A stretch of 64,000 nucleotides of DNA, taken from positions 129,620 to 193,619 of the forward strand of contig MNZB01000002.1 of NCBI GenBank assembly GCA_001873435.1. The letters run 5' to 3'. Positions 5,870-63,006 of this stretch are shown here, in pieces. The position numbers and the translations under genes are program-made. The first letter of the stretch is position 1. Every line of letters starts with the position of its first letter. Below the pieces are notes generated by a model, which saw only the letters and a list, made by a program, of their open reading frames with translations, was not told the DNA's origin and did no database searches. The DNA is from Candidatus Pacebacteria bacterium CG2_30_36_39 (lineage in GTDB: Bacteria; Patescibacteriota; Microgenomatia; UBA1400; PJMF01).

Positions 5870-6025
5870 ATGAAGGTTAAGCTGGAGCTTTGGAAGTTAT
5901 TAGTTTTTTTGATTGTTTTTGTTGTGGTTTTGAGTTTGCTGACTTTTTTCATTAAGATTCAACATCTTGGTTTTGAAGTTAATGAGGAGTTGGTTGAGTT
6001 AGTAAAACAGGTTGTATTTAGCTAA
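5870..6025 (+). CDS. small hydrophobic ORF (51 aa, one predicted TM helix). Not in the supplied ORF track because it is short.
   Basis: ATG at 5870. Translation 'MKVKLELWKLLVFLIVFVVVLSLLTFFIKIQHLG...'. Lies in the gap between prmC and the nuclease gene. Confidence 0.2.
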   Translation: MKVKLELWKLLVFLIVFVVVLSLLTFFIKIQHLGFEVNEELVELVKQVVFS

Positions 6026-6996
6026 AGAATGACGCTGTCTTCTTGAATTTCATTGCCACTTGGTAAGATATAAATGTCTTGGTTGTAGTTTCCGGGGCCA
6101 ACAAATTCTGCTTCGCCTTTAATGATTTTTTCAAATGGTTTGCAAGAAAAACAACCATTTTCTCCTTCTGGACAACGAAAGCGATTTAATTGACGAGCTA
6201 GTTTCATTTCTTTGGCAACTTTTAAGATTTTTTCATATGATTCTTGGGGGTCTGGTAGGGCGACTTCTTCTGGTTCATTGTTCATTCCCAAATACCAATA
6301 GCTGGCTTTTGCTACTTTTCTTTTTTGAGTATTGCTGACTAGCAGTAGGTAGATGGGTAGTTGTAGTGAGTCTGCTTTTTCTTTATTTTTACTAGTTTTA
6401 AAATCGATAATATGAACACTATCTGTATCTGGTAGATATTGGAGCCAGTCGATTTTGCCACAGAGAATAATTCCATCTGTTTCTGATAGCCAATAGTGAG
6501 GTAGATCTTCTTTGATTTTGACTGATAGTTGAGCTACAGGTCCTGGATTGTCCATGACTTTACGTAGCATTTCTTCACCTCTTTGTTTGAATTTTTCTTC
6601 AGTTTGTTGGTCTAGAAAGCCGCCTTTTTTGCCACTGATTTTTTGCCAAGATGTTTGGAATTTTTCAATTAGAGATTTGTTGAAGCGTTGGTTAGTTGGT
6701 AAGGCTGATAAAGATTCAATGACTTCATGAACAGCTTGTCCTAAGGCTAGGGCTGGGGCCATGATTTGCATTTTATGGCCTGTCTCAGGGTTTTTGTATA
6801 CGTTTTTGAGGAAGTAAGCACGAGGGCATTGTTGAAAATCATTGATAGATGAGTGCGAAACCCAGACAGCAGAGTATTTATCAGGCATAGGTTTAACTTT
6901 AGCATAAAACAGATGAAGAAGAAAATACGAAACTAGAATAAAATTCGCAATAATAGGCCTGATTTGATATAATATGAGATATTGATATGGTAACAA
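6022..6996 (-). CDS. PD-(D/E)XK nuclease, Cas4/AddB-like with Fe-S cluster cysteines. The true start is probably the internal Met of 'MPDKYSAV', about nt 6888.
   Basis: N-terminal 'QQCPRAYF' followed by a C-terminal Cys triad 'CPEGENGCFSCKP' gives four Cys, as in Cas4/AddB. RecB motif III 'IIDFKTSK' (D-x-K). The hydrophobic 36-aa extension on the track ORF looks spurious. Confidence 0.6.
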   Translation of the reverse strand: MLPYQYLILYQIRPIIANFILVSYFLLHLFYAKVKPMPDKYSAVWVSHSSINDFQQCPRAYFLKNVYKNPETGHKMQIMAPALALGQAVHEVIESLSALPTNQRFNKSLIEKFQTSWQKISGKKGGFLDQQTEEKFKQRGEEMLRKVMDNPGPVAQLSVKIKEDLPHYWLSETDGIILCGKIDWLQYLPDTDSVHIIDFKTSKNKEKADSLQLPIYLLLVSNTQKRKVAKASYWYLGMNNEPEEVALPDPQESYEKILKVAKEMKLARQLNRFRCPEGENGCFSCKPFEKIIKGEAEFVGPGNYNQDIYILPSGNEIQEDSVIL

Positions 6997-7373
6997 ATCA
7001 AGAGATTAGAGTTTTTGTCGCTGAAGACGATAAAATGTGGCGACAAGTTATCACTAGTGCTTTAGAAGAGATTAGTGCAGTTCTTGCTTTGCCAATCGCC
7101 GTAGATTTTATTTCCGCTCAAAATGCTATTAAACAATTGAAAAAACTAAAAGTTGATATTGCTATTATTGATGGCAATTTGACTCCTGGTGATTCTGATG
7201 GTTGGGAAGGTCAACAGTTGATTGAGGCTATAAAAAAGCTTGGTAGTGATATAAAAATAATTGGTTATTCAGCTTATGGTCAGCCATTATTAGAGGCTGG
7301 GGCTGATGCGGTTATAGATAAACTAGATTTTAGATCTATTGGTCCCACTATTTTGAGGTTATTAGCAAATTAG
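6987..7373 (+). CDS. stand-alone response-regulator receiver domain (CheY/Spo0F-like, 128 aa)
   Basis: 'VFVAEDD' acidic pocket. Phospho-acceptor 'DIAIIDGNL'. 'IIGYSAY' (Ser at beta4). 'AVIDKLDF' (Lys). No output domain. Confidence 0.75.
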   Translation: MVTNQEIRVFVAEDDKMWRQVITSALEEISAVLALPIAVDFISAQNAIKQLKKLKVDIAIIDGNLTPGDSDGWEGQQLIEAIKKLGSDIKIIGYSAYGQPLLEAGADAVIDKLDFRSIGPTILRLLAN

Positions 7374-7395
7374 TATAAATAATTAAGAAAGCTAT

Positions 7396-7803
7396 ATGAG
7401 TGATAGTAAAGAACGAAAATTTAATGTTTTACTTGCTGAGGATAATGAGGATTGGGTTGCTACGGTTGAAGATATTATTACTGAGATTGGTGGGGTTTTA
7501 GTTAAAACAGCTACTAATTTAGAGGATGCTATTGATGCTATGGCTATGCTTGAAGAGTTAAAAGTAGATATTATTATTTTGGGTGGTAGTCTTGGCGAAT
7601 TTAAAATTGGTAATACCGATACTTTGAGGATATTAATTGCTTTGATGGAAGCAAGGATTGAGGGTGGTTTTCATGCTAATAAGGCAAAAACTATTGGTTT
7701 GTCTGGTGATCATCAGACAAGAATTAAAGAGCTAGATGCTCAGTTGGGTAAGAATAATATTGATAATTTAAAAGCAACTATTTTGAGATTGTTGGCAAAA
7801 TAA
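7396..7803 (+). CDS. receiver-like domain protein lacking the phospho-acceptor Asp (pseudo-receiver, 135 aa)
   Basis: Similar overall to the upstream REC ('VLLAEDNEDW', 'KVDIIILGGSLGE'). Gly occupies the position aligned with the phospho-acceptor Asp ('IILGG' versus 'IIDG'). Confidence 0.55.
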   Translation: MSDSKERKFNVLLAEDNEDWVATVEDIITEIGGVLVKTATNLEDAIDAMAMLEELKVDIIILGGSLGEFKIGNTDTLRILIALMEARIEGGFHANKAKTIGLSGDHQTRIKELDAQLGKNNIDNLKATILRLLAK

Positions 7804-7812
7804 GATTAGTTG

Positions 7813-8277
7813 CTAAGAATTTTCTTTTTCAACAAGAATATCTATAATTTGTTCTCTCAATGCTTTTACCACATCTCTTGGATTAAATAGCGACATTGAG
7901 CTGTTTTTTAGGTCGAATTTTTTTCTTCTTCTAAAGGCATTTAATCTATCATGCAAATTGAGATGACCAATGTAACTAATTACAAACTGATAATTGATTT
8001 GTGGATTATCTTTTTCGTATGTCATTAATATTTCTAATTCGTATGTTGTATAATTTGAATCTTCAATTGGATTGGTAGGTTCATTAATTTTTGGTCCAAA
8101 TTTTGTTGATATGTTGCTAAAACCAATCTCTCTTAGTTTGTTGAAGAATGGCTCCAAATAGCTTAATAACTCTAAAAATGCAGCTTCATATTCAATTGGT
8201 TCGGTAATTTGTTTCTTTTCTTTTTCAATTGCTTGTTTAGCAGCTTTTTTCTTTGCTTCATTGAATATATCAGACAT
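7813..8277 (-). CDS. hypothetical protein (154 aa, Lys/Glu-rich N-terminus)
   Basis: ORF only. No motif recognised. Confidence 0.4.
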   Translation of the reverse strand: MSDIFNEAKKKAAKQAIEKEKKQITEPIEYEAAFLELLSYLEPFFNKLREIGFSNISTKFGPKINEPTNPIEDSNYTTYELEILMTYEKDNPQINYQFVISYIGHLNLHDRLNAFRRRKKFDLKNSSMSLFNPRDVVKALREQIIDILVEKENS

Positions 8278-8377
8278 AAACTTCCTTAAAAACCTACCCT
8301 ATAAGGTAGGGAAAGCTTATTACTCAGACTGAATCAAATTATATCATATCTTGATTAAAAATATTTTAAATAAAAAG

Positions 8378-8448
8378 ATCCCGGGCTAGGATTCGAACCT
8401 AGGATGACAGGGTCAGAACCTGTAATGATGCCACTTCACTACCCGGGA
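8378..8448 (-). tRNA. tRNA-Gln (anticodon CUG)
   Basis: Reverse complement folds as a cloverleaf. Acceptor stem TCCCGGG/CCCGGGA. D arm GTGA...TCAT. Anticodon stem ACAGG/CCTGT with loop TTCTGAC (U33, anticodon CTG, A37). T arm CTAGG-TTCGAAT-CCTAG. No encoded CCA. Confidence 0.8.
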
Positions 8449-8469
8449 TTTCAGCTTTTTTTCAGCTTT
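8448..8469. promoter_or_regulatory. left copy of a perfect 22-bp inverted repeat (atttcagctttttttcagcttt). It contains two direct 11-bp repeats 'cagcttttttt' and lies about 55 nt upstream of the response-regulator start.
   Basis: Read directly. The exact reverse complement occurs at 9860-9881. The first base overlaps the 5' end of tRNA-Gln on the other strand. Confidence 0.6.
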
Positions 8470-8517
8470 TTTTGCTAAATTAGCAATAAAACCGTAGGAA
8501 GATAGTATACCAGAGGA

Positions 8518-9216
8518 GTGGCTATGAGAAAAATCCTTATTTTAGAAGACAACAAAAACTTAGCTCAAACCCTGAAGATTGGTTTAACCCAGAAAAAAAG
8601 ACAACTAACATTAGTAGATTCACTAAAACACTTCTATCAAATTTTAGAAAAAGAAACCTATGATTTATGCATTATGGATCGCTTTGTAACAGATGGTGAC
8701 TCTATTGAAGCAATTGAATACATCAAAGAACTTCAACCCAAATTAAAATGCATATACCTAAGTAAAAAAACTAGTTTGCAAGACAAAATAAGTGGTTTAG
8801 AAAAAGGCGCTGATGACTATTTGGCCAAACCATTTTCATTGGCAGAACTAAGGCTAAAAGTAAAAAACATGTTGCAATGGGATACCTTGGTTAAAGAAGA
8901 AAAACCATTTCAGCTAGGAGAAATAGAATTTTTTGCTGAAACAGGCTGTTTTATCACGCCAGAAGGAGAAATTTATTTAAGAAAAAGAGAAAAAGACTTA
9001 GTCTTTTGTTTAATCCAAGCAAAAGGTAGAACAGTCTCTAGAAATCATTTATTGAGAACTCTATGGACTGCTGAAGAAGAAGCTCAGAGCAATACCATAG
9101 ATGTCTATATTCGTCGTTTAAGAAAAAGATTGGGCAAATATCAAGATATTATTCAAACCAGAAGAGGCTTTGGCTATCTAATTACTGCATATAATAAGGA
9201 AAGGATAATTCAATAG
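8518..9216 (+). CDS. OmpR/PhoB-family response regulator (REC plus winged-helix). The likely true start is the second ATG at 8524, preceded by 'gaggag'.
   Basis: 'ILILEDNKNL'. Phospho-acceptor 'LCIMDRFV'. C-terminal winged-helix 'NTIDVYIRRLRKRLG...RRGFGYLI'. Confidence 0.8.
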   Translation: MAMRKILILEDNKNLAQTLKIGLTQKKRQLTLVDSLKHFYQILEKETYDLCIMDRFVTDGDSIEAIEYIKELQPKLKCIYLSKKTSLQDKISGLEKGADDYLAKPFSLAELRLKVKNMLQWDTLVKEEKPFQLGEIEFFAETGCFITPEGEIYLRKREKDLVFCLIQAKGRTVSRNHLLRTLWTAEEEAQSNTIDVYIRRLRKRLGKYQDIIQTRRGFGYLITAYNKERIIQ

Positions 9217-9847
9217 TAGTACCCTGTTTTATCTTTGAACGTATATTCACTGAGCCATTAAATTCCTTTTCAACTGTTTGCTTGACAAAAAATAAACCCA
9301 AACCAGAATGATTTTGTTTAAAAGAACTAAACGGTTTCAAAGCCATTTGTTTTTCCCACCAATTCATTCCTTTACCAGCATCAACTACACTTAACAAACA
9401 ATTACTATTTTTATTAATAGCACTCAAAAATACTAATTTATGTTTGGTTTTCTTATTATAACTCTCGTGAGCATTGTTTAATAAACACACAACAATTTCT
9501 TGGAAAAGCAGTTTATTCCCACATAAAAATTTATTTGCTGGAATCACAATCCTTGTAACTAAATTTTTCTTGATCCTAGTTTGGTCATTAATACAAAGCA
9601 ACTCATTAATAGCTTTTTGAGGAGAAAAAACATAACGCTGCTGACGATCTCTAAAAGCCAGCATCGACTGCATATGCTTGGCATTTAATAAAACTCTTTG
9701 CAGTTCTTGCTCTGGTTTATATAAATTTTCTTGTTTAATATTTTCCAAAGCCAACTCTGACAAACTAAGAATATTTGTTAGAGGAGTAGCCAAACTATGT
9801 TGCAATATGGGGGTAGTAGAAAATAGAGTATTTTTTACCATACTCAC
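9182..9847 (-). CDS. minimal soluble histidine kinase (DHp plus HATPase_c only, 221 aa, no TM or sensor domain)
   Basis: H-box 'LQHSLATPLTNILSLSE'. N-box/G-box region 'LLNNAHESY...VVDAGKGM...HSGLGLFFVKQTVE'. Convergent with the RR and overlapping its 3' end by 35 nt. Confidence 0.7.
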   Translation of the reverse strand: MSMVKNTLFSTTPILQHSLATPLTNILSLSELALENIKQENLYKPEQELQRVLLNAKHMQSMLAFRDRQQRYVFSPQKAINELLCINDQTRIKKNLVTRIVIPANKFLCGNKLLFQEIVVCLLNNAHESYNKKTKHKLVFLSAINKNSNCLLSVVDAGKGMNWWEKQMALKPFSSFKQNHSGLGLFFVKQTVEKEFNGSVNIRSKIKQGTTIELSFPYYMQ

Positions 9848-9859
9848 AATTTACAGAAG

Positions 9860-9881
9860 AAAGCTGAAAAAAAGCTGAAAT
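9860..9881. promoter_or_regulatory. right copy of the 22-bp inverted repeat (aaagctgaaaaaaagctgaaat). It lies about 13 nt upstream of the histidine-kinase start on the minus strand.
   Basis: Exact reverse complement of 8448-8469. Confidence 0.6.
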
Positions 9882-11432
9882 TTAATTCTTAATCAAAGAA
9901 GTAATATCCCACAGCTGCAAACAAGGAGCATTATTTCCTCGACAATATTGTTCAATAAGCAAATCTGAATTACTTTCCATCAACCTCATTTTCTCTCGAT
10001 GAGAATTAACCAGCAACCAAACCTTTTCATAACCATTGCTTTGCTCAATAAATTTATCTGGTATGGCATAGACAGGCTGACCAATGCCTTCAACTCTTAA
10101 ATTAGTGTAGTCCTGATTGTGTAAATACATTAGCACTCCATCAGGCAAAGTACCAAAATAACCCTCTGTAGCGACTATTAGAGAATGTTCTTTAGTGGCC
10201 TTAAGCATTAACTCAGTACTTTCCTTTATGCCATTACCAGCTGACCATTCAGTTAAATATTGAACCCTATCTATTGGTACAAAAGGCAAGTAATAAGGAT
10301 TTTTCCAAGAAAGAATCATAAAAAGAAATGAGGTTTGGACAATAGAAGTTAAAGCAAGAACTATAAAAGCGGCTTGAAAAATAAAATAAAATAAATTTTT
10401 AAAACTAGCTTGCGCTCTTCTAACTATGTATTCAAAAGAAAGAGCAGCAGAAACCGTTAGTGGAAAAATACTAGGCAATATATAACGTGGATAAATAGTT
10501 TTACCAAGAACTAAAATCGGCAAAACAAACCCCAAAAAACTCAAAATTAAAATAACATGAGTCTTTCGTAACTTGGCTTGAAATAGGCCAAAGAAAGGTA
10601 AGACAACTATTGGCCAAGAAAGATAACGGAATAAAGCTTGGAAAATTCTTTGCGTATTGGCCCAAAAAACTGTTAATGCACCTTTATCTAGTAATTCATT
10701 GATTGGGTAAAGAAAATCACTACCACGACTAAATAATTGACTAAAAATAGGAGTTAATTTTAATAATGCAAAAATTAATATTCCACCCAAAATTACCAAC
10801 GAACTTTGACCAAGCCTTACAATAAAACTTGATTTTTTTTGTGGTAAAAAACTAATTAAAACCAAACTTGGAAAAAATAAGATAGCAGGAATCTTTGTAA
10901 ATAAAGCTAATCCAAGAAATAATATTGCTAAAAAAATATTTATCGTAAAATATTTTTTATCCTGATTGGTTTTAAGCAACCAAAGAAAAGAAGCAGAAAG
11001 AAAAGTAGTTAACAGAGCATCCATTAAAGCCATACGGTGATGAAAATACCAAAATGGCAGTAAAACAATTGTAAAAGCACCAAAAATTTGGGCTAATTTA
11101 CCGCCCCCAAGCTCTTTAATAGTTTCGGCAGTTATCTTGATTTGTATAAAGCCAGCAATTAGAGAAACTAAACGTCCAGCAAATAAAGGATCGTGCCAGA
11201 TTTTTAAAGCACCAGCTACCAGCCAAACAAAAAGTGGTGTCTTGCCATCATTCATAGAAAAGAATAAGTATCTTTGCCAATCATCAATAATTAGTTGCGC
11301 CCAGCGAATATAGATTGCTTCATCGGCAAAAACAGGAAGTAAAGTTAGGGAAATCAAATGAGTTAGCCAATAGACAAGGCCAATGATTATGAAACAAATG
11401 GGACTTAAAATTTTCCAATTCTTTTTTTGCAC
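9882..11432 (-). CDS. GT-C-fold membrane glycosyltransferase-like protein (ArnT/PMT-like, 516 aa, polytopic)
   Basis: A first-loop acidic motif 'VFADEAIYIRWAQ' follows TM1. About 12 hydrophobic segments. Sits in an operon with polyprenyl-P-sugar synthases. Confidence 0.5.
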   Translation of the reverse strand: MQKKNWKILSPICFIIIGLVYWLTHLISLTLLPVFADEAIYIRWAQLIIDDWQRYLFFSMNDGKTPLFVWLVAGALKIWHDPLFAGRLVSLIAGFIQIKITAETIKELGGGKLAQIFGAFTIVLLPFWYFHHRMALMDALLTTFLSASFLWLLKTNQDKKYFTINIFLAILFLGLALFTKIPAILFFPSLVLISFLPQKKSSFIVRLGQSSLVILGGILIFALLKLTPIFSQLFSRGSDFLYPINELLDKGALTVFWANTQRIFQALFRYLSWPIVVLPFFGLFQAKLRKTHVILILSFLGFVLPILVLGKTIYPRYILPSIFPLTVSAALSFEYIVRRAQASFKNLFYFIFQAAFIVLALTSIVQTSFLFMILSWKNPYYLPFVPIDRVQYLTEWSAGNGIKESTELMLKATKEHSLIVATEGYFGTLPDGVLMYLHNQDYTNLRVEGIGQPVYAIPDKFIEQSNGYEKVWLLVNSHREKMRLMESNSDLLIEQYCRGNNAPCLQLWDITSLIKN

Positions 11433-11465
11433 TTAATTCATTGTACCCAGAGAAAGGTGTTTCTG

Positions 11466-12704
11466 CTAGTTTAGCTTATTTTTCTTAAACTTCTCACTAA
11501 TAATTAGAAGCCCAAAAAAAATAACTCCTCCAAGCCAAGTAATATATTTTTGTTGACTTATGACATTATTAGCAAAACCACCAGCTAATAACCAAGGAAG
11601 ATAGCGCAATAAACCACTTAAACTAAAAGCTAAGACCAATTTTTTCCAAGGCAAATAACTAATTAAAGGCAACCAGATTATTGACCAAGTTAAATACCAT
11701 GGAAGAAATTGTTGAGAGCGCAAAGTAAATAGGGGAATAAATAAAATTAGAGAAATAAATAGGAATAAGTTTTTTTCAACCACTTTTTTTAATAAATCAT
11801 TGCGCAATGGATTTTCGAAAAACCAACCAATAAACCAATACAACCACAGAGGCAACAACAGAATTGTGACAAATTTAGTGCTGATTGAAAAACCAAGAAA
11901 AAATAAAGAAATAACACTGACGGTAATAGGTATTCTCTTGGGTTTTTTAATCACTAAAACCATACTAATAATTGCTGGTATCAACATCCAAAAGTCGTTA
12001 TGCAAATTAGATAGGATTTCAATTATTACCAATGGGTTGGCAAAAACCAACCAAACATCTGCTGCAGTAATTTTTCTATTACTTACTTTATATATTAATA
12101 ATTTGAGTACTAAGAACAATAAAATATAACTTAGCCAAGCTAAAGCTTTAAAAATAAACCAAGTAGGTAAAAACTTATTAAAGCCAACTAAATAAGGCAG
12201 AATCGAGAAGATCGTCCAACCATAGCCATATGGGGCAGGAGTATGAGTGTTGTGCATAAATCTAAGCCAATTATCTTGCGGAAAATCTAAGGCAACTTGT
12301 TGATGTGGATCAGCTTGATAAACAACTGCCATTTTGGCATTGAAAATATAATTAAAAACATCATGAGACAAGGCGTTATAGCTAAAAAATAATGGTGACA
12401 ATGCAAATAATATTTTAATAAAAAATTTTGTAGGATTTATATTTATTTCAGTTTTAAGATTTTTTAATCCTAAAAAATAAACCAAAAAATAACCAACAAC
12501 TAAAAGTAAAAAACTAGAAGTTAATAAATTTGAGTTATGGAAAAAGGTTTGCCACATCCACTGCTGAAAATTCCAGTATGGTGCCCAACTTGTTAAAACT
12601 AAATTTGGATCAGTTAGAGAATAAGAAAACAAAGAATAAAAAAAACTCACTAAAAAAAGTAAACCAAAAAGCTGGTTACTATTATTTGATTTTTTATTAT
12701 TCAT
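11466..12704 (-). CDS. polytopic integral membrane protein (412 aa), function unknown; possibly another lipid-linked-sugar-dependent transferase
   Basis: More than 10 hydrophobic segments. Aromatic-rich. No soluble domain. Confidence 0.4.
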   Translation of the reverse strand: MNNKKSNNSNQLFGLLFLVSFFYSLFSYSLTDPNLVLTSWAPYWNFQQWMWQTFFHNSNLLTSSFLLLVVGYFLVYFLGLKNLKTEININPTKFFIKILFALSPLFFSYNALSHDVFNYIFNAKMAVVYQADPHQQVALDFPQDNWLRFMHNTHTPAPYGYGWTIFSILPYLVGFNKFLPTWFIFKALAWLSYILLFLVLKLLIYKVSNRKITAADVWLVFANPLVIIEILSNLHNDFWMLIPAIISMVLVIKKPKRIPITVSVISLFFLGFSISTKFVTILLLPLWLYWFIGWFFENPLRNDLLKKVVEKNLFLFISLILFIPLFTLRSQQFLPWYLTWSIIWLPLISYLPWKKLVLAFSLSGLLRYLPWLLAGGFANNVISQQKYITWLGGVIFFGLLIISEKFKKNKLN

Positions 12705-12706
12705 GC

Positions 12707-13465
12707 TTAGTGATATTTTCCGGTTAAGTATGCCAATCTTATTTTCATAATATCAATTAACATACGAATAGAATCTTTAATAGGACTAACACGATCAGTT
12801 TTATGATGTTTCCAAAGGATTGGTACTTCTTTATAACCTATCTTAAATTTTCTAGCTAAAAACAATAATTCAACATCGAAAGCGCCAGTAAAGGCATCCT
12901 GGCGTGTTTGTTCTCCACCATAAACATAGAGAGCTGGAAAAAGTTTTTTAGTTGCATCGGCAGAAAAAAGTTTAAAACCACATTGAGTATCTTTGACTCC
13001 TCTTACTGCTAGAATTTGGACTAATAAATTGAATCCTCGACCCATTAAATGACGATAAAGAGGCTCTTTGTCTCTTCTAGCGCCAGTAATCTCTCTAGAA
13101 CCAAAAATAACTTCTTGAGAATCTATATATTTTAAAAGTTTTTCTATCTCTACTAAGGGAGTAGATTGATCAAAGTCAGTGAATAAACGCCATTCTCCAT
13201 TTGCAGCCAGCATCCCAGCTTTAACAGTTGGACCTTTACCAGCATGATGATTTTTTAGAACAACAATTCGACTGTCTTTTACAGCATATGATTCGAGAAT
13301 TTCCGCTGTTCCATCAGTACTTCCATCATCAGTTAAAACCAATTCCCAAGTATAGGTTTGTTTTTTGAGATAACTTAGCATCTCTTCAACAACACCTCTT
13401 TTAAGATTGCTTTGTTCATTGAAAGAAGGGACAACTACGGATAAAAAAGGAATTTGGTTTGCCAT
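12707..13465 (-). CDS. GT2 polyprenyl-phosphate sugar synthase (dolichol-phosphate mannosyltransferase DPM1-like)
   Basis: 'LSVVVPSFNEQSNL' and 'LVLTDDGSTDGT' (DxD region). 252 aa soluble GT-A. Confidence 0.75.
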   Translation of the reverse strand: MANQIPFLSVVVPSFNEQSNLKRGVVEEMLSYLKKQTYTWELVLTDDGSTDGTAEILESYAVKDSRIVVLKNHHAGKGPTVKAGMLAANGEWRLFTDFDQSTPLVEIEKLLKYIDSQEVIFGSREITGARRDKEPLYRHLMGRGFNLLVQILAVRGVKDTQCGFKLFSADATKKLFPALYVYGGEQTRQDAFTGAFDVELLFLARKFKIGYKEVPILWKHHKTDRVSPIKDSIRMLIDIMKIRLAYLTGKYH

Positions 13466-13473
13466 AAGCAGCT

Positions 13474-15051
13474 CTATTCTAGCGGTTGTGCGCTTTCTTG
13501 TGTAGTTCTTTTCAACATAGTTATTTCTGGTCCTCCTGGTATAACAAAGAAATCAGCTGGTTTTTTATCTGGAAAAACAGCTATTTCATAAATTGGTGAA
13601 TCAGTAACATTCGTTGTTTTCTTTTCTTCATTAATAATAAACAGGGTGGTAGTACTATCTCTTTCAGCAAAAGTTGTTGGGCTAGTATGCCCAGTAGTTA
13701 AGTAATAACGATAGTTTTGGCCATCAATATCATGACTCTCTGAAAGTAAAACCAAATTATATTTTTCTCCAGGCTGGACATGCTTTAATATTTCTTCACT
13801 AGTTCTTTTCATATCATTAATAGTCCAACCCATAGTTTTAAGTGGCATCTTGGGCAGATTGTATTGCAAAAAATATCCAGCAAAAATAATTGTGCCAAGA
13901 TAAATGAAAAATTTTGGTTTAATACTGCTTGCTAACCAGCCATAAACTAAAACTGTAACCGGAAAAAGATAGGCAATATAGTGATCAAAAATAGTATGCT
14001 CATAAAAAGCGGTTCCAATAATTCCTATTAATAAATAAGTTAAAATCACCATAAATGGAGCTAAATATTTAGCTCCATGATCTTTTTTAAGCAATTGGGA
14101 CTGCCTGATTAAATAGCCACAGATTAAAACAGCAAAACCATAAAGCAAATTCTTATTTAAAGTTCTATTTTTTCCAATCATAACTTCAAATAAAATATGC
14201 ATCCCGCGGCCTTCAGTTTCTTTAAAAGTTTTAGCCAACTTTGTAGTTAGAGAAACTTTTGGTGAATAAGTAAAATTATCTTCATTGGTAATTAAATTTT
14301 GAAATGCAGATATATTTTTACTGCCGTGCTTTAGATCAAATAAAATCAAGGGTGTTAATGATATTAGAAAAATAGAAATGGCAAGAAAAGTTGGTTTTAA
14401 AAGTGGTTTAAAGCTATGTTTTTTGTTTTGTTGATGTTTTTGCCAAAAATCCTTAAAGCTTAATAACCAAAAAATTCCAGCAACTGGCAGTGTTAATAGT
14501 GTTAAATAGTGCAATTGAATAAGAACGCTAAAACAAACACTTACCCAAACCCAGTGCCATGGATTTTTTTTCCAGGCAGAGTAAGTGAAGTAAATCATTA
14601 ATAATGAAATTACTGGAGCTGGATTGGGATTCCAGCTAAATCTAGTAAACTGAGTTGCTGTAGCAGAAAAAGTGTAAAAAGCAGATGCCAGTAAGGCTCC
14701 ATTTTCACCAATCATCTTTTTACCCAAAAAATAGATTAGATAAACAGTTAAAACTCCTAGTCCAGCCATGGCATAAACTGGTCCAATTGGATTTGGATAG
14801 GTTAGCCATAAAAAAGGTAGCATAAAATAGTAATACAGTGGTCCGAGATACATATTTCCCACACTAGTAACTGGACCAATAAAAACTAAATCATGTTTGC
14901 GAAATATGTCAGCCACTATCATGGCGTCTCTACCCTGATCTCCCTGAAATTGTAGTGAACCCTCTAGATTATAGAAACGCAAGAAGATAGCGATGAGCAG
15001 CAAACTCACCAACAACACTCTTTTGAGTGGTGAGACGGGTAATAGCTTCAT
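13474..15051 (-). CDS. GT-C-like polytopic membrane protein (525 aa)
   Basis: N-terminal TM followed by 'FQGDQGRDAMIVADIF' in a loop, then 11 or more TM segments and a C-terminal soluble domain. Architecture resembles ArnT/PMT-type transferases. Confidence 0.45.
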   Translation of the reverse strand: MKLLPVSPLKRVLLVSLLLIAIFLRFYNLEGSLQFQGDQGRDAMIVADIFRKHDLVFIGPVTSVGNMYLGPLYYYFMLPFLWLTYPNPIGPVYAMAGLGVLTVYLIYFLGKKMIGENGALLASAFYTFSATATQFTRFSWNPNPAPVISLLMIYFTYSAWKKNPWHWVWVSVCFSVLIQLHYLTLLTLPVAGIFWLLSFKDFWQKHQQNKKHSFKPLLKPTFLAISIFLISLTPLILFDLKHGSKNISAFQNLITNEDNFTYSPKVSLTTKLAKTFKETEGRGMHILFEVMIGKNRTLNKNLLYGFAVLICGYLIRQSQLLKKDHGAKYLAPFMVILTYLLIGIIGTAFYEHTIFDHYIAYLFPVTVLVYGWLASSIKPKFFIYLGTIIFAGYFLQYNLPKMPLKTMGWTINDMKRTSEEILKHVQPGEKYNLVLLSESHDIDGQNYRYYLTTGHTSPTTFAERDSTTTLFIINEEKKTTNVTDSPIYEIAVFPDKKPADFFVIPGGPEITMLKRTTQESAQPLE

Positions 15052-15057
15052 ATTATT

Positions 15058-16230
15058 TTATTTTTTCTTACCCTTTTTCCAAATAAAGGTATTGTAAGCA
15101 AAGAAATTCCAAAACATTCCAATTAGGATTCCGCCTACGGCATACATAGTACCGGTATCAATATCCATATTAATAATTGGCAAGGTGAAGAGAGTAAATA
15201 GTCCGACAAAGGTCTCTCCAACAAAAGCAATTATTTGTTGAATTAAAATTGAACCACCAGATGCCAAATTAAATTGAACAAACTTAGCTGGAATTTGTTT
15301 TGCTTTAAGTTTACGATCAGAAAAAGTCCATAGGTTGCTTAGAATAAAATTCATTAAGACAGCACATTCAATAGCTAAGAAAAAGGCTAGCTGGAATGGA
15401 GCAACTAAACGCCAGCCTTGTAAAGTCAAAAGTTGAGTAAGTGCGCCAATGCCACCGACTATGACAAACTTAAAAATTCTACTTTTTAATAAATCTGTGA
15501 CTCTCACTTTCATAATGTATTCAAGAGTATTTTTTATATACTCAGGTCCTATTTTACTTTTACCAATGGTTCTATCTTTGAAATGAAAAGGAATTTCTGC
15601 CATGGAAAATCCGTGGTTCATTGCTTTATGAAGAAACCCAATTTGAAAGGTGTACCCAGAGAATTTATCATCATTTAACTCTTCTCTAATTGTTGTAAAA
15701 ACTTTTTTAGTAATAGCGCGATAGCCAGTAGTCCAGTCTCTAATTTTAAAATTAGTTAAAACAGTCATGATAACCAAATTTCCCACCACACTCAAAAACT
15801 TGCGGTGGAAGCCCCAATCGGCTGGAATACTGCCACCTGGAATATACCTGGATCCAAGTGCCATGTCATAGCCTTCATCTATTTTTTTGAGAAACAAAGG
15901 AATTTTTGTTGGGTCATGAGAGAGATCTGCATCAAATTCGAAAACAACTTCAGCACTGAGTTTGTTAAAGGCAAAATCCATGCCTTTTAAATAAGCTCCG
16001 CCCAAGCCAGCTTTTTCAGGATTTACTAATAGTTCCAGGCTAGCAAATTTTTTCTTTAAGTTCTCAACTAACTCGTAGGTTTTATCTGGTGAAGTATCAT
16101 CAACTACCAATACTCCGCACTCCCAATTATTAATTTCTTTAAAGGTTTTGTAAACTTCAGTGAGAGTTTTTTCAATGTTCTCACGCTCGTTATAGGTTGG
16201 GATAATGACGAACGCTTTTTTTTGTTGCAT
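15058..16230 (-). CDS. GT2 polyprenyl-phosphate glycosyltransferase fused to a C-terminal GtrA-like membrane domain
   Basis: 'FVIIPTYNERENI' and 'VLVVDDTSPDKT'. The C-terminal 120 aa has four TM helices, typical of GtrA-family fusions. Confidence 0.75.
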   Translation of the reverse strand: MQQKKAFVIIPTYNERENIEKTLTEVYKTFKEINNWECGVLVVDDTSPDKTYELVENLKKKFASLELLVNPEKAGLGGAYLKGMDFAFNKLSAEVVFEFDADLSHDPTKIPLFLKKIDEGYDMALGSRYIPGGSIPADWGFHRKFLSVVGNLVIMTVLTNFKIRDWTTGYRAITKKVFTTIREELNDDKFSGYTFQIGFLHKAMNHGFSMAEIPFHFKDRTIGKSKIGPEYIKNTLEYIMKVRVTDLLKSRIFKFVIVGGIGALTQLLTLQGWRLVAPFQLAFFLAIECAVLMNFILSNLWTFSDRKLKAKQIPAKFVQFNLASGGSILIQQIIAFVGETFVGLFTLFTLPIINMDIDTGTMYAVGGILIGMFWNFFAYNTFIWKKGKKK

Positions 16231-16235
16231 GGAAC

Positions 16236-17213
16236 TTAGTCTTTCAACTTGCTTTCTTCTTCTAGTTCAGACTGAACCATTAAATCTACTAGTTGTTCAA
16301 AATCAATTGTTGGTTGCCAACCCAATTTTTCTTTAGCTTTACTAGGATCGCCGATGAGCAAATCAACCTCAGCTGGTCTGTCGTAAACTGGGTTGTGTTT
16401 GTAAACACTTTGCCAATCAGTAATACCAGCTGATTTACATGAAAGTTCTAGAAATTCTCTTACAGAATGGGTTTCTCCAGTAGCAACTACATAATCATCT
16501 GGTTCATTTTGCTGAAGCATCAACCACATAGCTTCAACATAGTCTTTGGCATAGCCCCAGTCACGTTTTGCATCAAGATTACCCAATTCAATATATGGCT
16601 GTTTGCCGAGTTTAACTCTAGCAATGCCATTGGCAATTTTTCTAGTTACAAACTCAAGACCACGGCGAGGGGATTCATGATTGAATAAAATACCGGAAAC
16701 GGCAAACATATCATATGATTCACGATAGTTTACTGTAATCCAATGACCATAAACCTTGGCGACGCCATATGGTGATCGAGGATAAAAAGGTGTTAATTCT
16801 GTTTGTGGGGTTTCGCGAACCTTGCCAAACATTTCACTTGAAGAGGCTTGATAAAATTTAGCATTAGGAGAAGCTAGACGCATTGCCTCAAGTACTCTGG
16901 TTACGCCGATACCAGTAAATTCTCCAGTTAAAACGGGTTGTTCCCAAGAGGCTTGCACAAAAGATTGAGCAGCTAGATTATAGATTTCATCTGGTTGAAT
17001 ATCTTTTAGAGCGAAAGTTAATGAGTGTTGATCAATTAAATCACCAGAAATTAACTTAAGATTTGGATTATGGACAACTCTTTTAATTCTGGCAAAATTT
17101 TGAGTACTAGTACGACGAGTAAGACCGAAAACCTGATAGCCTTTTTCAAGTAAAGACTCAGCTAAATATGAACCATCTTGGCCGGTAATACCGGTAATAA
17201 ATGCTTTTTTCAT
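16236..17213 (-). CDS. gmd: GDP-mannose 4,6-dehydratase
   Basis: '[35 protein letters not shown]'. '[19 protein letters not shown]'. 325 aa. Strongly conserved Gmd signature. Confidence 0.9.
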
Positions 17214-17223
17214 GAATACCTCT

Positions 17224-18180
17224 CTATTGTTCTCTCCACCACTGTACTATTCTTGCTAGGGTCGTGTCGAGAGGGATTGTGGGTTCCCACCCGAGTGATT
17301 CAATTTTTGCAATGTCAGCAGTCACTCTATCTGTTTCACCAGTACGATTTTTGCTTTCATCAGCAACAATTTTAAATTCTTTATTGGCCAATTGTTGAAG
17401 TTTTTCTAATATCTCTCGAAGAGTAACATCTCTGCCACTACCGATGTTGTAAACTTCTCCAGCTTCACCTTTTTCCATTAGCAAGGCATAAGCTTTAACA
17501 ACGTCTTTTACATCAGTAAAATCGCGACTGACATCAATGTTTCCTACTCTCAATTCTTTTTTTAATCCTTTTTCAATTTCTTGAGTTATTTGTGAAACGA
17601 AATCTGGAATAACAAAGCCTTTGGGTTGATATTCACCTATATGATTAAAAGATCTAGTTCTGACGATATTAAGGTTGTGAGAGGCGTAGTAGGCACTGGC
17701 CAACATGTCTTGAGTAACTTTTGAAACAGCATAGGGATTTCTTGGACCTAGGGGACTAGTTTCAGTTAATGGACTAGGGGATGGAGCATATTCTGTGCCA
17801 CTGCCAATTGAAAGTAGCTTTGCATTGGGAGTGATGTTTAGCATAGCTTCCAAGACATTAAGTTGAATTTTAGTGTTTATGTCTAAAACTAAGCTTTTCT
17901 TTTCTAAACTAAGACCTGGAGATGAAAAACTTGCCAAATTATAGATATGTTCAGGTTTGAGTAGCTCAAACAACTCCATTACTAAATTTGGTTTGGTTAA
18001 ATTTGCTTCGTGGAAATTAGTTTGAGGTATGAGCTGATCAAGAATTACTTGAGGTTCAATTTTTAGTGTAGTGACGTGAATTAGTTCTGCTGGGGTGTTG
18101 TTGGCAATGAGTTCTTGAACCAAATGTGTACCAACAAAACCAGTACCGCCAGTAATTAAGATATTTCCATTTGTTTTCAC
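17224..18180 (-). CDS. rmd: GDP-4-dehydro-6-deoxy-D-mannose reductase (Rmd-like; GDP-D-rhamnose-forming SDR)
   Basis: '[14 protein letters not shown]', 'PRNPYAVSK', '[10 protein letters not shown]', '[18 protein letters not shown]' and '[12 protein letters not shown]' closely parallel Pseudomonas Rmd, recalled from memory. Directly downstream of gmd. Confidence 0.7.
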
Positions 18181-18195
18181 GTTTGTTTCCTCTAA

Positions 18196-19497
18196 TTATG
18201 ATTGTTTACCAACACCAATATATTTATAGCCTATTTTTTTGAGCTCTTCTTCATTTAATTGATTACGAGCATCTACTATCCATTGCATTGTATCAGGACG
18301 CCTGGTTTTTGAGAAATCGAAGCTGACTATTTCTGGCCATTCAATTAGGCAGAAAATTATATCTGCATTCAAAACAGCTTCTTCAATTGATTTTGTTTGA
18401 GTGTGACCAGTTTCTAGTTTTTCTAATCTAAAAAATGTTTTCCAGGAAGCCATTGGGTCATAACTTGAGATTTCGGCTCCTTTACTTAAAAGAATTGGAA
18501 CTACTTTATTTGCTGGTGCTTCACGCATGTCATCAGTATTTGGTTTGAATGATAAGCCCAAAACTGCAACTTTTTTACCCTTCCAACCACCGATCTTTTT
18601 TTCAATTCTTTGTAAAATCTTTGGGATACGAGTTTCATTTAATTCATTGATTTTATTGAATAAATTATCACCTTCTTCTACCGACCTAGAGTAAGCAGCG
18701 ATCTCTTTTACATCCTTGGGGAAACAAGAACCGCCATAGCCAAAACCAGGATACCAATATTGAGAACCAATTCTTTTATCTAAACCAATGGCAGAAATTA
18801 CATCTTCAATATCCGCACCATTTTTCTCACAAAGATCAGCTACCTGATTAACAAAGGTAATCCTAGTAGCAAGATATGCATTGGCTGCATATTTAGCCAT
18901 TTGAGCTGATTCTGGTTTAACTTTTACAATCGGAGCATTGAGCGGTAGATGGAGTTCTTCTAATCTCTTAAATACTTCATCATTATTTGCGCCTAAGACA
19001 ACTCTGTCTGGATGAAGTGTATCTTTAACAGCGGTTCCTTCTTTGAGAAATTCTGGCACTGATGCTACATGAAATTTAACGTTGGTTAGTTTTTTAATTC
19101 TTGCTTCTACAATTGGTAATGTTCCTGGAGGAACAGTGGATTTCACAACAACAATAGCATTTTCTTTTAAATATGGAGCAAGTGAATCTAGGCTAGCAAA
19201 AACATAGCGGAGATCTGCTTGGCCATCTGGTCCAGATGGAGTGCCAACGGCAATCATAATAATGTCGGCATCTTTAATCGCAACTTCATAGTTGGTGGTA
19301 AAAGTTAGATTACCGCCTTTTTGTTGGGAGATTAATAAATCTTCTAATCCAGGTTCATAGAATGGTACTTTGCTATTTTTTAAGGAAGTAATTTTATTTT
19401 CATCAACATCAAGTCCAATGACTTGATTACCAAACGAAGCATAAACAGCTGCGCTGACAACTCCGACAAAACCAGTACCAATGAACGTCACATTCAT
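18196..19497 (-). CDS. ugd: UDP-glucose 6-dehydrogenase (nucleotide-sugar dehydrogenase family)
   Basis: 'MNVTFIGTGFVGVVSAAVYA'. Catalytic Cys motif 'GYGGSCFPKDV'. 433 aa. Confidence 0.85.
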   Translation of the reverse strand: MNVTFIGTGFVGVVSAAVYASFGNQVIGLDVDENKITSLKNSKVPFYEPGLEDLLISQQKGGNLTFTTNYEVAIKDADIIMIAVGTPSGPDGQADLRYVFASLDSLAPYLKENAIVVVKSTVPPGTLPIVEARIKKLTNVKFHVASVPEFLKEGTAVKDTLHPDRVVLGANNDEVFKRLEELHLPLNAPIVKVKPESAQMAKYAANAYLATRITFVNQVADLCEKNGADIEDVISAIGLDKRIGSQYWYPGFGYGGSCFPKDVKEIAAYSRSVEEGDNLFNKINELNETRIPKILQRIEKKIGGWKGKKVAVLGLSFKPNTDDMREAPANKVVPILLSKGAEISSYDPMASWKTFFRLEKLETGHTQTKSIEEAVLNADIIFCLIEWPEIVSFDFSKTRRPDTMQWIVDARNQLNEEELKKIGYKYIGVGKQS

Positions 19498-19566
19498 ATT
19501 TTCTTTCTATTTTAGCTTTCAATTTAGGTCGTTTATAGGCTCAGTATAGCATTATATAATCAGGCT

Positions 19567-23542: not shown

Positions 23543-25327
23543 ATGGGCTACAATAGGAGAGTGCAAAAACTGAAACAGTGGTCAGTCTTTTCTTTTTTAT
23601 TGCTAGTTTTCTTAGCTAGTTCTTGGTCTCTCTTGATAAACAATGGGTTTTTTAGGGTTCACGATTTTACTCATGCCGGTAGAATTGTTGAAATGGCCAG
23701 GGCTTTACAAGATGGTCATTTTCCAGTTAGATGGACTGAAAATTTTGGTTATGGCTATGGTATGCCTTTATTTGAGTTTTATGGTCCATTGCCTTTTTAT
23801 GTTGGCGCTCTATTTTTCTTGATTTTTGGTAATGTGATTTGGAGTATTAAATTTTTATATTTGTTGGTTAATTTTGGTACCTTAATGGGTGGATATTGTT
23901 TGGGTAAGAAGCTTTATGGTCGAGCTGGAGGTTTGTTGGTTGCAACTTTTTTAACTCTAGCTCCATATAGAGCAATGAATTTATTTGCCAGAGGGGCTTT
24001 AAATGAGGTTTGGGGTATTATGTTTTTGTCTTGGATATTATTTGGTTTGATAAAGATATTTCATCAAGAAAAAAATGGCTGGAAATTTTTTACTTTATCT
24101 TTAATTGGTTTGTTTTTATCTCATAACATTACAACAATGATTTTCTTGCCTGTTTTGGCTTTGTTTGCCTTGTTTTATATGGGAACGATGTATTTTTATC
24201 AGAGGCCGGAACTTTTTAGAAAGAGTCAATTTAGATTGAGGAATTTTTTAAGAATTTCTTGGCAGTTATTTGCAAGTGGGTTGTTGGCTGTTGGTGCCGC
24301 TAGTTTTTATTTGTTGCCAGCATTTTTAGAGAAGAACTATACTCAGGTAGAAAAGATTATTTTAACTTATTATTTTGATTTTAGATTGCATTTCTTGTAT
24401 ATCAGGCAGTTTTTTAATTCGACTTGGGGGTATGGTGGTAGTGGCTGGGGAACTGATGATGGTATTTCTTTTTTCTTGGGTTGGGGGCAATTATTAACAT
24501 TAATTATTTTTCTATTGTTGTGGTTTAAACAGATTTGTAGATTTATTTTTAAGAGAAATGTTAAACAGTCTTCGCAAATTTCCGCCAGATCTTTTTGGTT
24601 GACTCTGTCTTTTGGAGTTTTGACTTTATTTACTTTGTTTATGAGTTTGCTGAAATCTCAATTTGTTTGGGAGCAAATAGAGATTTTTAAATTTATTCAA
24701 TTTCCCTGGCGTTGGTTGAGTTCGGCTATAGTGTTTTTGGCTTTGCTTTTAGGTTCAATTTCTTGGCTTTTTACTAATGTCATAGTTAGGGCTTGGGTAG
24801 CTGGGATTGTTGTTGTTATATCTGTTATTGGTTCGGTTGGGTTTTTTAGGCCAGATTTTTATTTAGATAATCCTGTAGATTTTTACTATACAGATCCATC
24901 TAGAATTAGAAATGAATTGAGTGGTATTTTGCCAGACTATATATCGAGTGATATGGAAGAAAAACCAAGTATTATTCCAGATCAGTTGATTATTAATCAT
25001 GAAGATTTAGATGCTGAAAAGTATGATGTTTTAGTTGATCGTACTCATGAAAAATTAATTAAAACTTCTTTTTCTACTCCTACCAAATTGGAGTTGGCTG
25101 TAGCGACTTATCCCGGTTGGAAGACTGAGATAGATGGGCAGTGGTGGAATAATTCCAAGGGAGTAGTGGGTAATATTCAGATTGAAGCTCCAGCTGGAGA
25201 GCACTTGGTGAGTTTGAGATTTGAAAATACTTGGTTGAGAACTTATTCAGATTTAATCTCTCTTTTTTCTTGGTTAATACTTATCTATTTATTTTTGCCA
25301 AAAAATATTATTAAGAAGAAGAACTGA
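23543..25327 (+). CDS. YfhO-like polytopic membrane protein (putative GT-C glycosyltransferase), paralog 1
   Basis: N-terminal 'HDFTHAGRIVEMARALQDGHFPVRW'. Loop motif 'YLLPAFLEKNYTQ'. 'IQFPWRWLS'. C-terminal 'YPGWKTEIDGQWW' domain. 594 aa. Confidence 0.5.
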   Translation: MGYNRRVQKLKQWSVFSFLLLVFLASSWSLLINNGFFRVHDFTHAGRIVEMARALQDGHFPVRWTENFGYGYGMPLFEFYGPLPFYVGALFFLIFGNVIWSIKFLYLLVNFGTLMGGYCLGKKLYGRAGGLLVATFLTLAPYRAMNLFARGALNEVWGIMFLSWILFGLIKIFHQEKNGWKFFTLSLIGLFLSHNITTMIFLPVLALFALFYMGTMYFYQRPELFRKSQFRLRNFLRISWQLFASGLLAVGAASFYLLPAFLEKNYTQVEKIILTYYFDFRLHFLYIRQFFNSTWGYGGSGWGTDDGISFFLGWGQLLTLIIFLLLWFKQICRFIFKRNVKQSSQISARSFWLTLSFGVLTLFTLFMSLLKSQFVWEQIEIFKFIQFPWRWLSSAIVFLALLLGSISWLFTNVIVRAWVAGIVVVISVIGSVGFFRPDFYLDNPVDFYYTDPSRIRNELSGILPDYISSDMEEKPSIIPDQLIINHEDLDAEKYDVLVDRTHEKLIKTSFSTPTKLELAVATYPGWKTEIDGQWWNNSKGVVGNIQIEAPAGEHLVSLRFENTWLRTYSDLISLFSWLILIYLFLPKNIIKKKN

Positions 25328-29143: not shown

Positions 29144-29265
29144 ATGGATAAAATATTTTAATTCCTTATTTAGATTACTCTATAATAAAGAAGTTTGTAA
29201 ATACCTAGTTCATCAGAAGAAAAACATAATAAACTAGATACACTTTGATATAATATAGATTAATT

Positions 29266-61261: not shown

Positions 61262-61262
61262 T

Positions 61263-62969: not shown

Positions 62970-63006
62970 AAGTTACTATTCTTTGACAAGATGCTAATAT
63001 ATTAAA

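Follow-up and report, generated by a model that had tools for sequence, protein, structure and literature searches.

Paired OmpR/PhoB-type boxes, probably autoregulatory, before the convergent response regulator and histidine kinase genes of a Candidatus Pacebacteria bacterium

The stretch of DNA considered here (the window) is 64,000 nucleotides (nt) of contig MNZB01000002.1 from Candidatus Pacebacteria bacterium CG2_30_36_39, and the element in question is a perfect 22-nt inverted repeat that encloses a two-component pair. The left arm, ATTTCAGCTTTTTTTCAGCTTT at 8448-8469, recurs in exact reverse complement at 9860-9881, as an earlier note on this DNA had claimed. The arms, which are 1.4 kb apart, delimit a segment of 1,434 nt in total, and between them lie the genes of an OmpR-family response regulator (plus strand) and a histidine kinase (minus strand) and nothing else. 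Gene calls and Pfam domains agree with the note that these genes are convergent, and the left arm does adjoin a tRNA-Gln gene, whose 5' end meets the left box and whose transcription is directed away from the regulator gene. At the other end of the segment, the box on the kinase side occupies the gap between the stop codon of a PMT_2 glycosyltransferase gene and the start of the kinase gene (Table 1). As set out below, the arms are probably two copies of one regulatory module, one before each gene.

Table 1. Features of the regulator-kinase locus and its borders (positions in the window)
Feature	Position	Strand	Remarks
Terminator-like hairpin and T-run	8293-8310	-	Downstream of tRNA-Gln; pattern scan
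tRNA-Gln, anticodon CTG	8377-8448	-	ARAGORN; Rfam tRNA 56.8 bits
Regulator-side box, TTTCAGC-TTTT-TTTCAGC	8449-8466	+	Core of left arm; two 7-nt direct repeats, 11 nt apart
-10-like hexamer TAAATT	8476-8481	+	Putative box-dependent regulator promoter; 9 nt past box
Conserved TAGTATACCA	8503-8512	both strands read	In all close-clade lineages
Ribosome-binding site AGAGGAG of regulator gene	8512-8518	+	Sequence; conserved in orthologues
OmpR/PhoB-family response regulator, 230 amino acids (aa)	8524-9216	+	Pfam Response_reg and Trans_reg_C
Minimal histidine kinase, 219 aa	9182-9841	-	Pfam HATPase_c
-10-like hexamer TAAATT	9848-9853	-	Putative kinase promoter; 9 nt past box, 6 nt before ATG
Kinase-side box, TTTCAGC-TTTT-TTTCAGC	9880-9863	-	Core of right arm
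PMT_2 (ArnT-like) glycosyltransferase	9882-11432	-	Pfam; last glycosyltransferase of same-strand run, kinase directly downstream

Each arm had been described as two tandem copies of cagcttttttt with an 11-bp period. The period stands, but in the right copy the second such unit is not exact (CAGCTTTCTTC), and a 7+4+7 reading (TTTCAGC TTTT TTTCAGC) is preferable to a reading in 11-nt copies. Read in this way, both boxes have the tandem half-sites of 6-7 nt at a period of ~11 nt that mark an OmpR/PhoB-type box. If mismatches are allowed, the arms grow inward to 34 nt with 88% complementarity (8448-8481 and 9848-9881). In simulated sequence (n = 200 order-2 Markov windows), perfect inverted repeats within 3 kb reached a maximum of 13-18 nt, compared with the 22 nt observed. 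With up to three mismatches allowed, the 18-mer core is found at exactly two sites in the 64 kb, namely, the two arms. A degenerate pattern for the whole box family adds four matches with one mismatch, where 2.2 are expected by chance; each of them falls within a long open reading frame (ORF).

The regulator carries both domains expected of its family (Response_reg, 1.3e-18; Trans_reg_C, 1.1e-19, residues 149-219), and its receiver alignment conserves the acidic pair (LED..), the phospho-acceptor Asp (..MDR..), the Ser/Thr (LS/LT), and the Lys (KPF). The nearest solved structures are those of BasR/PmrA (8jo2 and 4s04; E about 4e-23), and solved BasR, PrrA, DrrD, and KdpE match it over its full length. 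None of the NCBIfam equivalog cut-offs compared was reached, either for PmrA (117 of 330 bits) or for PhoB (118.9 of 296.2 and 129.9 of 270), and the names PmrA and PhoB are therefore unsuitable for this protein. Contigs in 92 blocks of the assembly collection encode the identical protein; the eight of these loci that were retrieved come from eight ENA / JGI metagenome samples, at least one of which is labelled groundwater.

The kinase, which NCBI lists under Candidatus Pacebacteria bacterium (CG10 series), is recognized by its HATPase_c domain (1.1e-11), and the Pfam HisKA model finds no match on it. The H-box histidine is residue 15, with 14 residues before it, and the protein therefore has no sensor or membrane domain; the input (sensor/transmembrane) domain of classical HisKA-type kinases is missing. 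H15, the N-box, and the G-boxes (NNA.ES, D.G.GM, HSGLGL) are invariant in 21 homologues, and all homologues are 213-254 aa long. Extension of the ORF past 9847 is impossible, a stop codon lying just upstream. Apart from small points of distance, the description in the note is correct. The choice of start codon affects the spacing given for the two elements, which the note had placed about 55 nt before the regulator and about 13 nt before the kinase: the former figure is 54 nt to the ATG at 8524, and the latter becomes 18 nt if the kinase starts at ATG 9841, as in the public annotation, or 12 nt from an alternative GTG at 9847.

The 3' ends of the two genes overlap by 35 nt (9182-9216). No terminator fits between them, so each transcript must enter the other gene in antisense. 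In orthologous loci, the overlap is 9-27 nt (L009, L012, L013, and L015), and a 7-nt gap is found in L011. A convergent overlapping arrangement in place of an operon, a kinase without a sensor, and a kinase message that is probably leaderless (see below) are all unusual, though not unprecedented.

Past each box, at the same distance, comes the same -10-like hexamer (Table 1); on the regulator side TGC stands before it, so that the whole reads TGCTAAATT. Upstream of the -10, at a distance of 17 nt, the sequence is AGCTTT, with 0/6 matches to the -35 consensus TTGACA, and a scan with the sigma-70 -35/-10 consensus called no promoter before either the regulator or the kinase. Across the lineages, the distance from the kinase -10 to the start codon is 6-8 nt in nine lineages and 10 nt in one, mostly with no ribosome-binding motif. 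A start codon 6-10 nt past the -10, usually without a ribosome-binding site, suggests that the kinase messenger RNA (mRNA) is leaderless.

The gene order GT2, MptA_B, PMT_2, kinase, and convergent regulator is kept in at least 12 related Pacebacteria lineages, with kinase identities of 31-62%, and tRNA-Gln(CTG) is divergent from the regulator in all 12 loci that extend far enough. The note had regarded the pair without the repeats in related genomes as evidence against its proposal; instead, in each of the nine closest lineages (kinase identity 45-62%) the regulator and the kinase are both preceded by a box, and the half-sites co-vary. A tenth lineage, L020, has the kinase-side box, its contig ending inside the regulator gene, and the kinase-side boxes are orthologous in 10 lineages.

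The boxes themselves differ between lineages in an orderly way. In the window, L009, L011, L012, and L158, the regulator-side and kinase-side boxes both follow the pattern TTTCAG[CGT]TTTTTTTCAG[CGT]. Elsewhere, the regulator-side and kinase-side sequences are, respectively, TTTCAGGATTTTTTCAGG and TTTCAGGATTTTTTCAGC in L026, TTTCATGATTTTTTCATC and TTTCAGGATTTTTTCAGG in L013, TTTAAGGATTTTTTAAGC and TTTAAGGATTTTTTAATC in L015, and TTTAAGAATTTTTTAAGG at both sites in L023; the kinase-side box of L020 is TTTCATCATTTTTTCATT. The regulator-side box is identical or near-identical to that of the window in L009, L011, L012, and L158, with the variants TTTCAT, TTTAAG, and TTTCAGG among L013, L015, L023, and L026. 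Arranged by half-site, the lineages fall into those with TTTCAG (window, L009, L011, L012, L158, and L026), those with TTTCAT/TTTCAG (L013 and L020), and those with TTTAAG (L015 and L023).

Within a genome, the two boxes are closer in sequence than boxes drawn from different genomes: the summed Hamming distance is 10, and permutation of the genomes gives a mean of 24 (P=0.0015). The 9-nt spacers 3' of the boxes are essentially unrelated between the two sites, the flanking spacer sequence has diverged among lineages, and in the relatives the similarity of the arms is confined to the 18-nt box. Such paired change of half-sites is the pattern expected if one co-evolving trans-acting factor reads both sites.

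A half-site-N5-half-site-N10-TAnnnT layout is found at all 18 tabulated sites (nine lineages) and in L020; there is an exact 9-nt gap after each tabulated box, and the TAnnnT (TAAATT, TAAGCT, TATGCT, TATATT, and others) stands at its fixed offset at 9/9 regulator-side sites. Every tabulated site has the spacing of a class II promoter of the CiaR/PhoB type, with the box at a fixed N10 from the -10, and the two promoters in the window also have the absence of a -35 in common with that type. More distant lineages keep parts of this layout: TTTAAT-N5-TTTAAT-N10-TATAAT at the regulator of L027, TTTAAG-N5-TTTAAG-N10-TAGGCT at the regulator of L032, ATTAAT-N5-TTCAAG-N10-TATGCT followed after 6 nt by ATG at the kinase of L032, and GTTAAA-N5-TTTAAT-N10-TACTAT followed after 7 nt by ATG at the kinase of L028. 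No convincing box was found at the remaining sites of the distant lineages, such as the L027 kinase and the L028 regulator.

Taken together, conservation, within-genome co-variation, and a CiaR-like geometry support the note's proposal of shared autoregulatory OmpR-type boxes, and we consider it probable (roughly 0.78) that the arms are two copies of one OmpR/PhoB-type autoregulatory module, one before the regulator and one before the kinase. The two modules look like an inverted repeat because the genes they precede are convergent. The perfect 22-nt identity in the window would mostly reflect functional constraint, the variable seventh position of the half-sites happening to be C at both sites. 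According to this model, the phosphorylated regulator would bind each box as a head-to-tail dimer and recruit RNA polymerase in lieu of a -35 contact, in the manner of a class II activator, and the pair would raise its own expression from two separate promoters (positive autoregulation). The kinase mRNA would begin at or next to its ATG and be leaderless, and the regulator mRNA would have a leader of roughly 36 nt with the conserved ribosome-binding site; read-through from PMT_2 would presumably yield a poorly translated kinase.

Several known regulators offer parallels. PmrA (BasR) binds direct repeats of YTTAAK and controls ugd and the arn genes, including those for a GT2 and an ArnT/PMT_2-type transferase. 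The PmrA/BasR-PmrB system of Enterobacteria resembles the window in that it provides the nearest solved structure and in that the window pair ends a run of genes with Ugd, sugar dehydratases, GT2, and PMT_2; it differs in that the regulator falls under the PmrA cut-off, the window kinase has no periplasmic or membrane sensor, and no box was found before the sugar operon. In Escherichia coli, the pho box, also laid out as 7+4+7, takes the place of the -35 and ends 10 bp before the -10. PhoB shares with the window pair the autoregulation of the system's own genes, and differs in its half-site (CTGTCAT), in the equivalog cut-offs that the window regulator does not reach, and in the phosphate-uptake genes, none of which lie near the window pair.

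The closest match in geometry is CiaR of Streptococcus pneumoniae and other streptococci, likewise an OmpR-family regulator. The genes ciaR and ciaH form an operon, unlike the convergent overlapping genes of the window, each of which has its own box. CiaR-activated promoters have TTTAAG-N5-TTTAAG with 10 nt to the -10 (PMC3091779), which is the same distance from box to -10 as in the window. L015, L023, and L032 even carry the exact CiaR-type TTTAAG-N5-TTTAAG-N10-TAnnnT, and the TTTCAG of the window stands in the same frame, with C where the CiaR half-site has A. The recognition helices differ (VVEVYVSKVRKKL in CiaR and NTIDVYIRRLRKRL in the window regulator). The sites of Mycobacterium tuberculosis PhoP consist of two 7-nt direct repeats and a 4-nt A/T-rich spacer (PMC4832192), the 7+4+7 layout of the window box. 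Our literature search returned nothing specific on a regulator of TTTCAG direct repeats, on two-component systems or leaderless mRNAs of Patescibacteria, or on convergent autoregulated pairs.

Beyond this locus, the pattern TTTCAGBTTTTTTTCAGB matched at least 120 loci in a scan of the genome collection. Nearly all of the 120 matching loci listed are scattered singletons in unrelated taxa, and one (L158) is an orthologue of the window locus; a scan of the viral collection gave 31 scattered single matches, which we take as background. With two copies in the window and mostly scattered singletons among the viral and the listed genome matches, the motif is not the ubiquitous low-complexity sequence that the note had named as its possible undoing. 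Two matches in Patescibacteria, L084 and L138, were considered as regulon sites and rejected as chance matches inside coding sequence.

Four of the matches listed, all from Clostridia (L101, L105, L148, and L186), have a box 70-170 nt upstream of an OmpR-family regulator gene; by a rough estimate, 120 random sites would yield ~0.04 coincidences of this kind. Here, the box reads TTTCAG[CG]TTTTTTTCAG[CT], with TAnnnT 9 nt later, and each locus has a second, inverted box that faces divergent VTC/DUF4956 genes (double boxes at L101:3540-3700, L105:2120-2310, L148:6630-6800, and L186:860-1095). These units are like that of the window in the identical 18-nt box, the TAnnnT at 9 nt, the OmpR-type regulator gene, and the second inverted box. 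They are unlike it in that the regulator and kinase genes run in the same direction and that the inverted boxes, separated by a few nt to about 35 nt, serve operons that diverge. Their kinases also differ, being proteins of 411-445 aa that have an N-terminal region and a HisKA domain. The four loci are orthologues of each other and are therefore counted as a single further system. Their regulators have 25-27% identity to that of the window, and their recognition helix is NNVEAYISFLRKKL, compared with NTIDVYIRRLRKRL; because of this low identity and different helix, the shared box is evidence on the kind of element and not on orthology. The VTC-domain/DUF4956 pair is possibly polyphosphate-related, and the double-box arrangement looks like an undescribed conserved regulatory unit: in the literature searched, we found no description of a regulator-kinase/VTC-DUF4956 unit with such boxes.

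Four other explanations of the repeats were weighed. The note itself had offered, as the alternative, that they bound a mobile or invertible cassette of 1.4 kb as its terminal inverted repeats, perhaps inserted next to the tRNA-Gln gene. A perfect 22-nt inverted repeat with one arm at a tRNA gene, next to a region past the tRNA 3' end that varies among relatives, is what such a cassette might look like, but the rest of the evidence contradicts it, and we regard it as extremely improbable. All relatives, even at 31% kinase identity, have the pair in the same place, bordered by PMT_2 and tRNA-Gln; among the genes between and next to the arms, none encodes a transposase, an integrase, or an invertase; the sequences outside the arms (CCCGGG and TTAATT) are not a target-site duplication; and arm similarity in the relatives stops at the edges of the box. 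Inversion of the segment fares no better, given that seven independent assemblies of the same species, with 1-5 single-nucleotide differences over the 1,434 nt, and at least 12 lineages all have one orientation relative to the flanks. Integrases normally use the 3' end of a tRNA gene. An integrative element that targets the tRNA was rejected, as the repeats are inverted, the arm meets the tRNA at its 5' end and shares 1 nt with it, and no integrase is present. Just as improbable is a chance low-complexity match or a recent local copy without function. The arms are T-rich, and their 34-nt similarity, which includes an identical TAAATT that relatives do not have at both sites, hints at some recent homogenization; against this, simulated sequence never reached 22 nt, and the box is present at both sites in at least nine lineages with diverged flanks, a conservation that contradicts this reading.

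A reading in which the motif is a core promoter element, recognized by RNA polymerase itself (through an alternative sigma factor or as a T-rich UP-like element) and not by the neighbouring regulator, would account for the fixed distance to the -10-like hexamer, the cover of the -35 region, and the richness in T. It is nonetheless improbable: an 11-nt tandem direct repeat is the signature of an OmpR/PhoB dimer and not of a sigma -35, other promoter regions in the 64 kb are without the motif, and in both Patescibacteria and Clostridia it occurs specifically beside OmpR-type regulator genes. The rival nearest in kind accepts that the regulator binds the boxes but has it repress, with RNA polymerase occluded beside the -10 and both regulator and kinase turned down. 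In its favour, the box ends 9 nt from the -10-like hexamer and, on the kinase side, the repeat ends 18 nt from the start codon, and a conserved alternative -10, TAGTAT, downstream of the regulator-side box could be the promoter in use. Moreover, Clostridioides difficile RR_1586, which binds DRTTAAGNWWW (a TTAAG repeat) at an 11-nt period, repressed reporter promoters (PMC6222199). Yet both promoters are without a -35, as promoters that depend on an activator typically are, and their N10 spacing is identical to the one at CiaR-activated promoters. A repressor site would not need an exact distance to the -10 across such divergence, and all of this makes repression unlikely.

Positive autoregulation by the neighbouring regulator, the reading we prefer, also has points against it. 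The binding protein, the sign of regulation, and the transcription start sites are all predictions from the sequence, and the evidence that assigns this regulator to these boxes consists of adjacency, family type, and co-variation. In the recognition helix, the one difference that tracks TTTCAG versus TTTAAG is Ile/Val (TIDV versus TVDV), and helix/half-site co-variation was dropped as evidence because a conservative change in two related lineages is too weak. In the Clostridia, box similarity does not simply track helix similarity. No third site was found in the 64 kb with the core at up to three mismatches or with the degenerate pattern, and the motif may belong to a regulon or only to a private loop. 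Finally, we found no experimental basis for promoter rules in Patescibacteria, and a box so near the -10 could equally repress.

The hairpin and T-run downstream of tRNA-Gln suggest that it is a transcription unit of its own; an Rfam search of 7500-10500 returned the tRNA and no other family. Between the regulator-side box and the regulator gene lies the conserved TAGTATACCA, which, together with the ribosome-binding site of the regulator, is contained in a conserved 16-mer, ATAGTATACCAGAGGA. Read on the plus strand, its TAGTAT is a possible second, box-independent promoter of the regulator. Read on the minus strand, it gives TGGTATACT (8512 to 8504), an extended -10 that points at tRNA-Gln. 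On the tRNA strand, every lineage examined retains the form TGnTATACT/TGnTATAAT, among them L023, which has lost the ribosome-binding site of the regulator, and the distant L027, L028, and L032.

The same kind of extended -10 recurs in intergenic DNA of the window at 19543-19551 (-), 8504-8512 (-), 8338-8346 (-), and 29246-29254 (+), the motif TGCTATACT preceding the large sugar operon at 19551-19543. These motifs point at downstream genes, have no obvious -35, and may be the common promoter type of the organism. Short palindromes also lie over the regulator-side -10 (8467-8486), with TTGCTAAATTAGCAA in the window, CCAGCAgtaTGCTGG in L013, and AGCTT...AAGCT in L009, L011, and L012. Their sequence and position vary between lineages; they could be a second operator or a structure in the tRNA leader, and the fold of this putative leader is not significant (z = -1.85).

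A more speculative idea, which we think unlikely, is that in the clade of the window the box-dependent regulator promoter faces the promoter of tRNA-Gln(CUG). The regulator promoter, with its -10 at 8476-8481, would start rightward near 8488, and the tRNA promoter, with TGGTATACT at 8512-8504 (-), would start leftward near 8497, so that the two predicted starts would be about 10 nt apart and the tRNA precursor would be transcribed across the regulator's box. If this were true, a bound regulator and an active regulator promoter would turn off transcription of tRNA-Gln(CUG), or be turned off by it, and the availability of one tRNA would be linked with a self-amplifying two-component switch without a sensor. 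With no room for a terminator, the overlapping ends of the convergent genes would then be a second layer of transcriptional interference, between the regulator and the kinase genes. The face-to-face arrangement is not ancestral, because in L032 and L031 the tRNA promoter sits between the tRNA and the box.

On the far side of the tRNA, the region from its 3' end to a conserved PD-(D/E)XK nuclease gene (6022-6996) is different in every relative and appears to be a small variable island (6987-8277). In the window, it encodes two tandem paralogous stand-alone receiver-like proteins (6987-7803; 128 and 135 aa, of which the first alone matches Response_reg) and a 154-aa protein with no assigned function. 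The sensor-less kinase could have these receivers as additional partners, or they could act as its phosphate sinks.

Upstream of the kinase, the same-strand run from 19497 to 9882 encodes UDP-glucose dehydrogenase (Ugd), two sugar dehydratase/epimerases, GT2-GtrA, PMT_2, GT2, an MptA_B-family protein, and PMT_2. Many genes of the window belong to envelope glycosylation. There are at least five PMT_2 (ArnT-like, GT-C) paralogues (within 9882-19497, and at 23543-25327, 29504-31249, and 56360-58084), and several more ORFs of ~550-590 aa, and alongside these come Ugd, the sugar dehydratases, GT2-GtrA, a polysaccharide flippase, and a LytR-CpsA-Psr protein. Lipid-linked envelope glycosylation accounts for a very large part of the 64 kb. 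A scan with the degenerate pattern found no box before the run from Ugd to PMT_2, where the promoter-like motifs are TGCTATACT and TATATAAT; control of the sugar operon by the regulator is therefore unsupported. Elsewhere in the window, the G+C content is 0.20-0.25 at 30001-32000 and 60001-64000, compared with about 0.33 in the remainder, no ORF of at least 100 aa is listed past 62969, and several promoter-like motifs lie in 62990-63930.

In kind, this is ordinary two-component autoregulation, and its value is mainly that of a clean, testable regulatory motif in an uncultured phylum. In the literature searched, we found no transcription-factor site for Patescibacteria (Candidate Phyla Radiation) that had been defined by experiment or by comparison. 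The locus supplies this mostly uncultured group with a cis-element that has good support, the regulator that probably recognizes it, and a geometry for the promoter (box, N10, -10, and leaderless start), and the same box and geometry stand at OmpR-type regulator genes in both Clostridia and Patescibacteria. It also exemplifies an autoregulated pair whose genes converge and overlap, each with its own copy of the promoter, instead of forming one operon, and whose kinase is sensor-less, a circuit previously undescribed in the little-known Pacebacteria group, here from groundwater.

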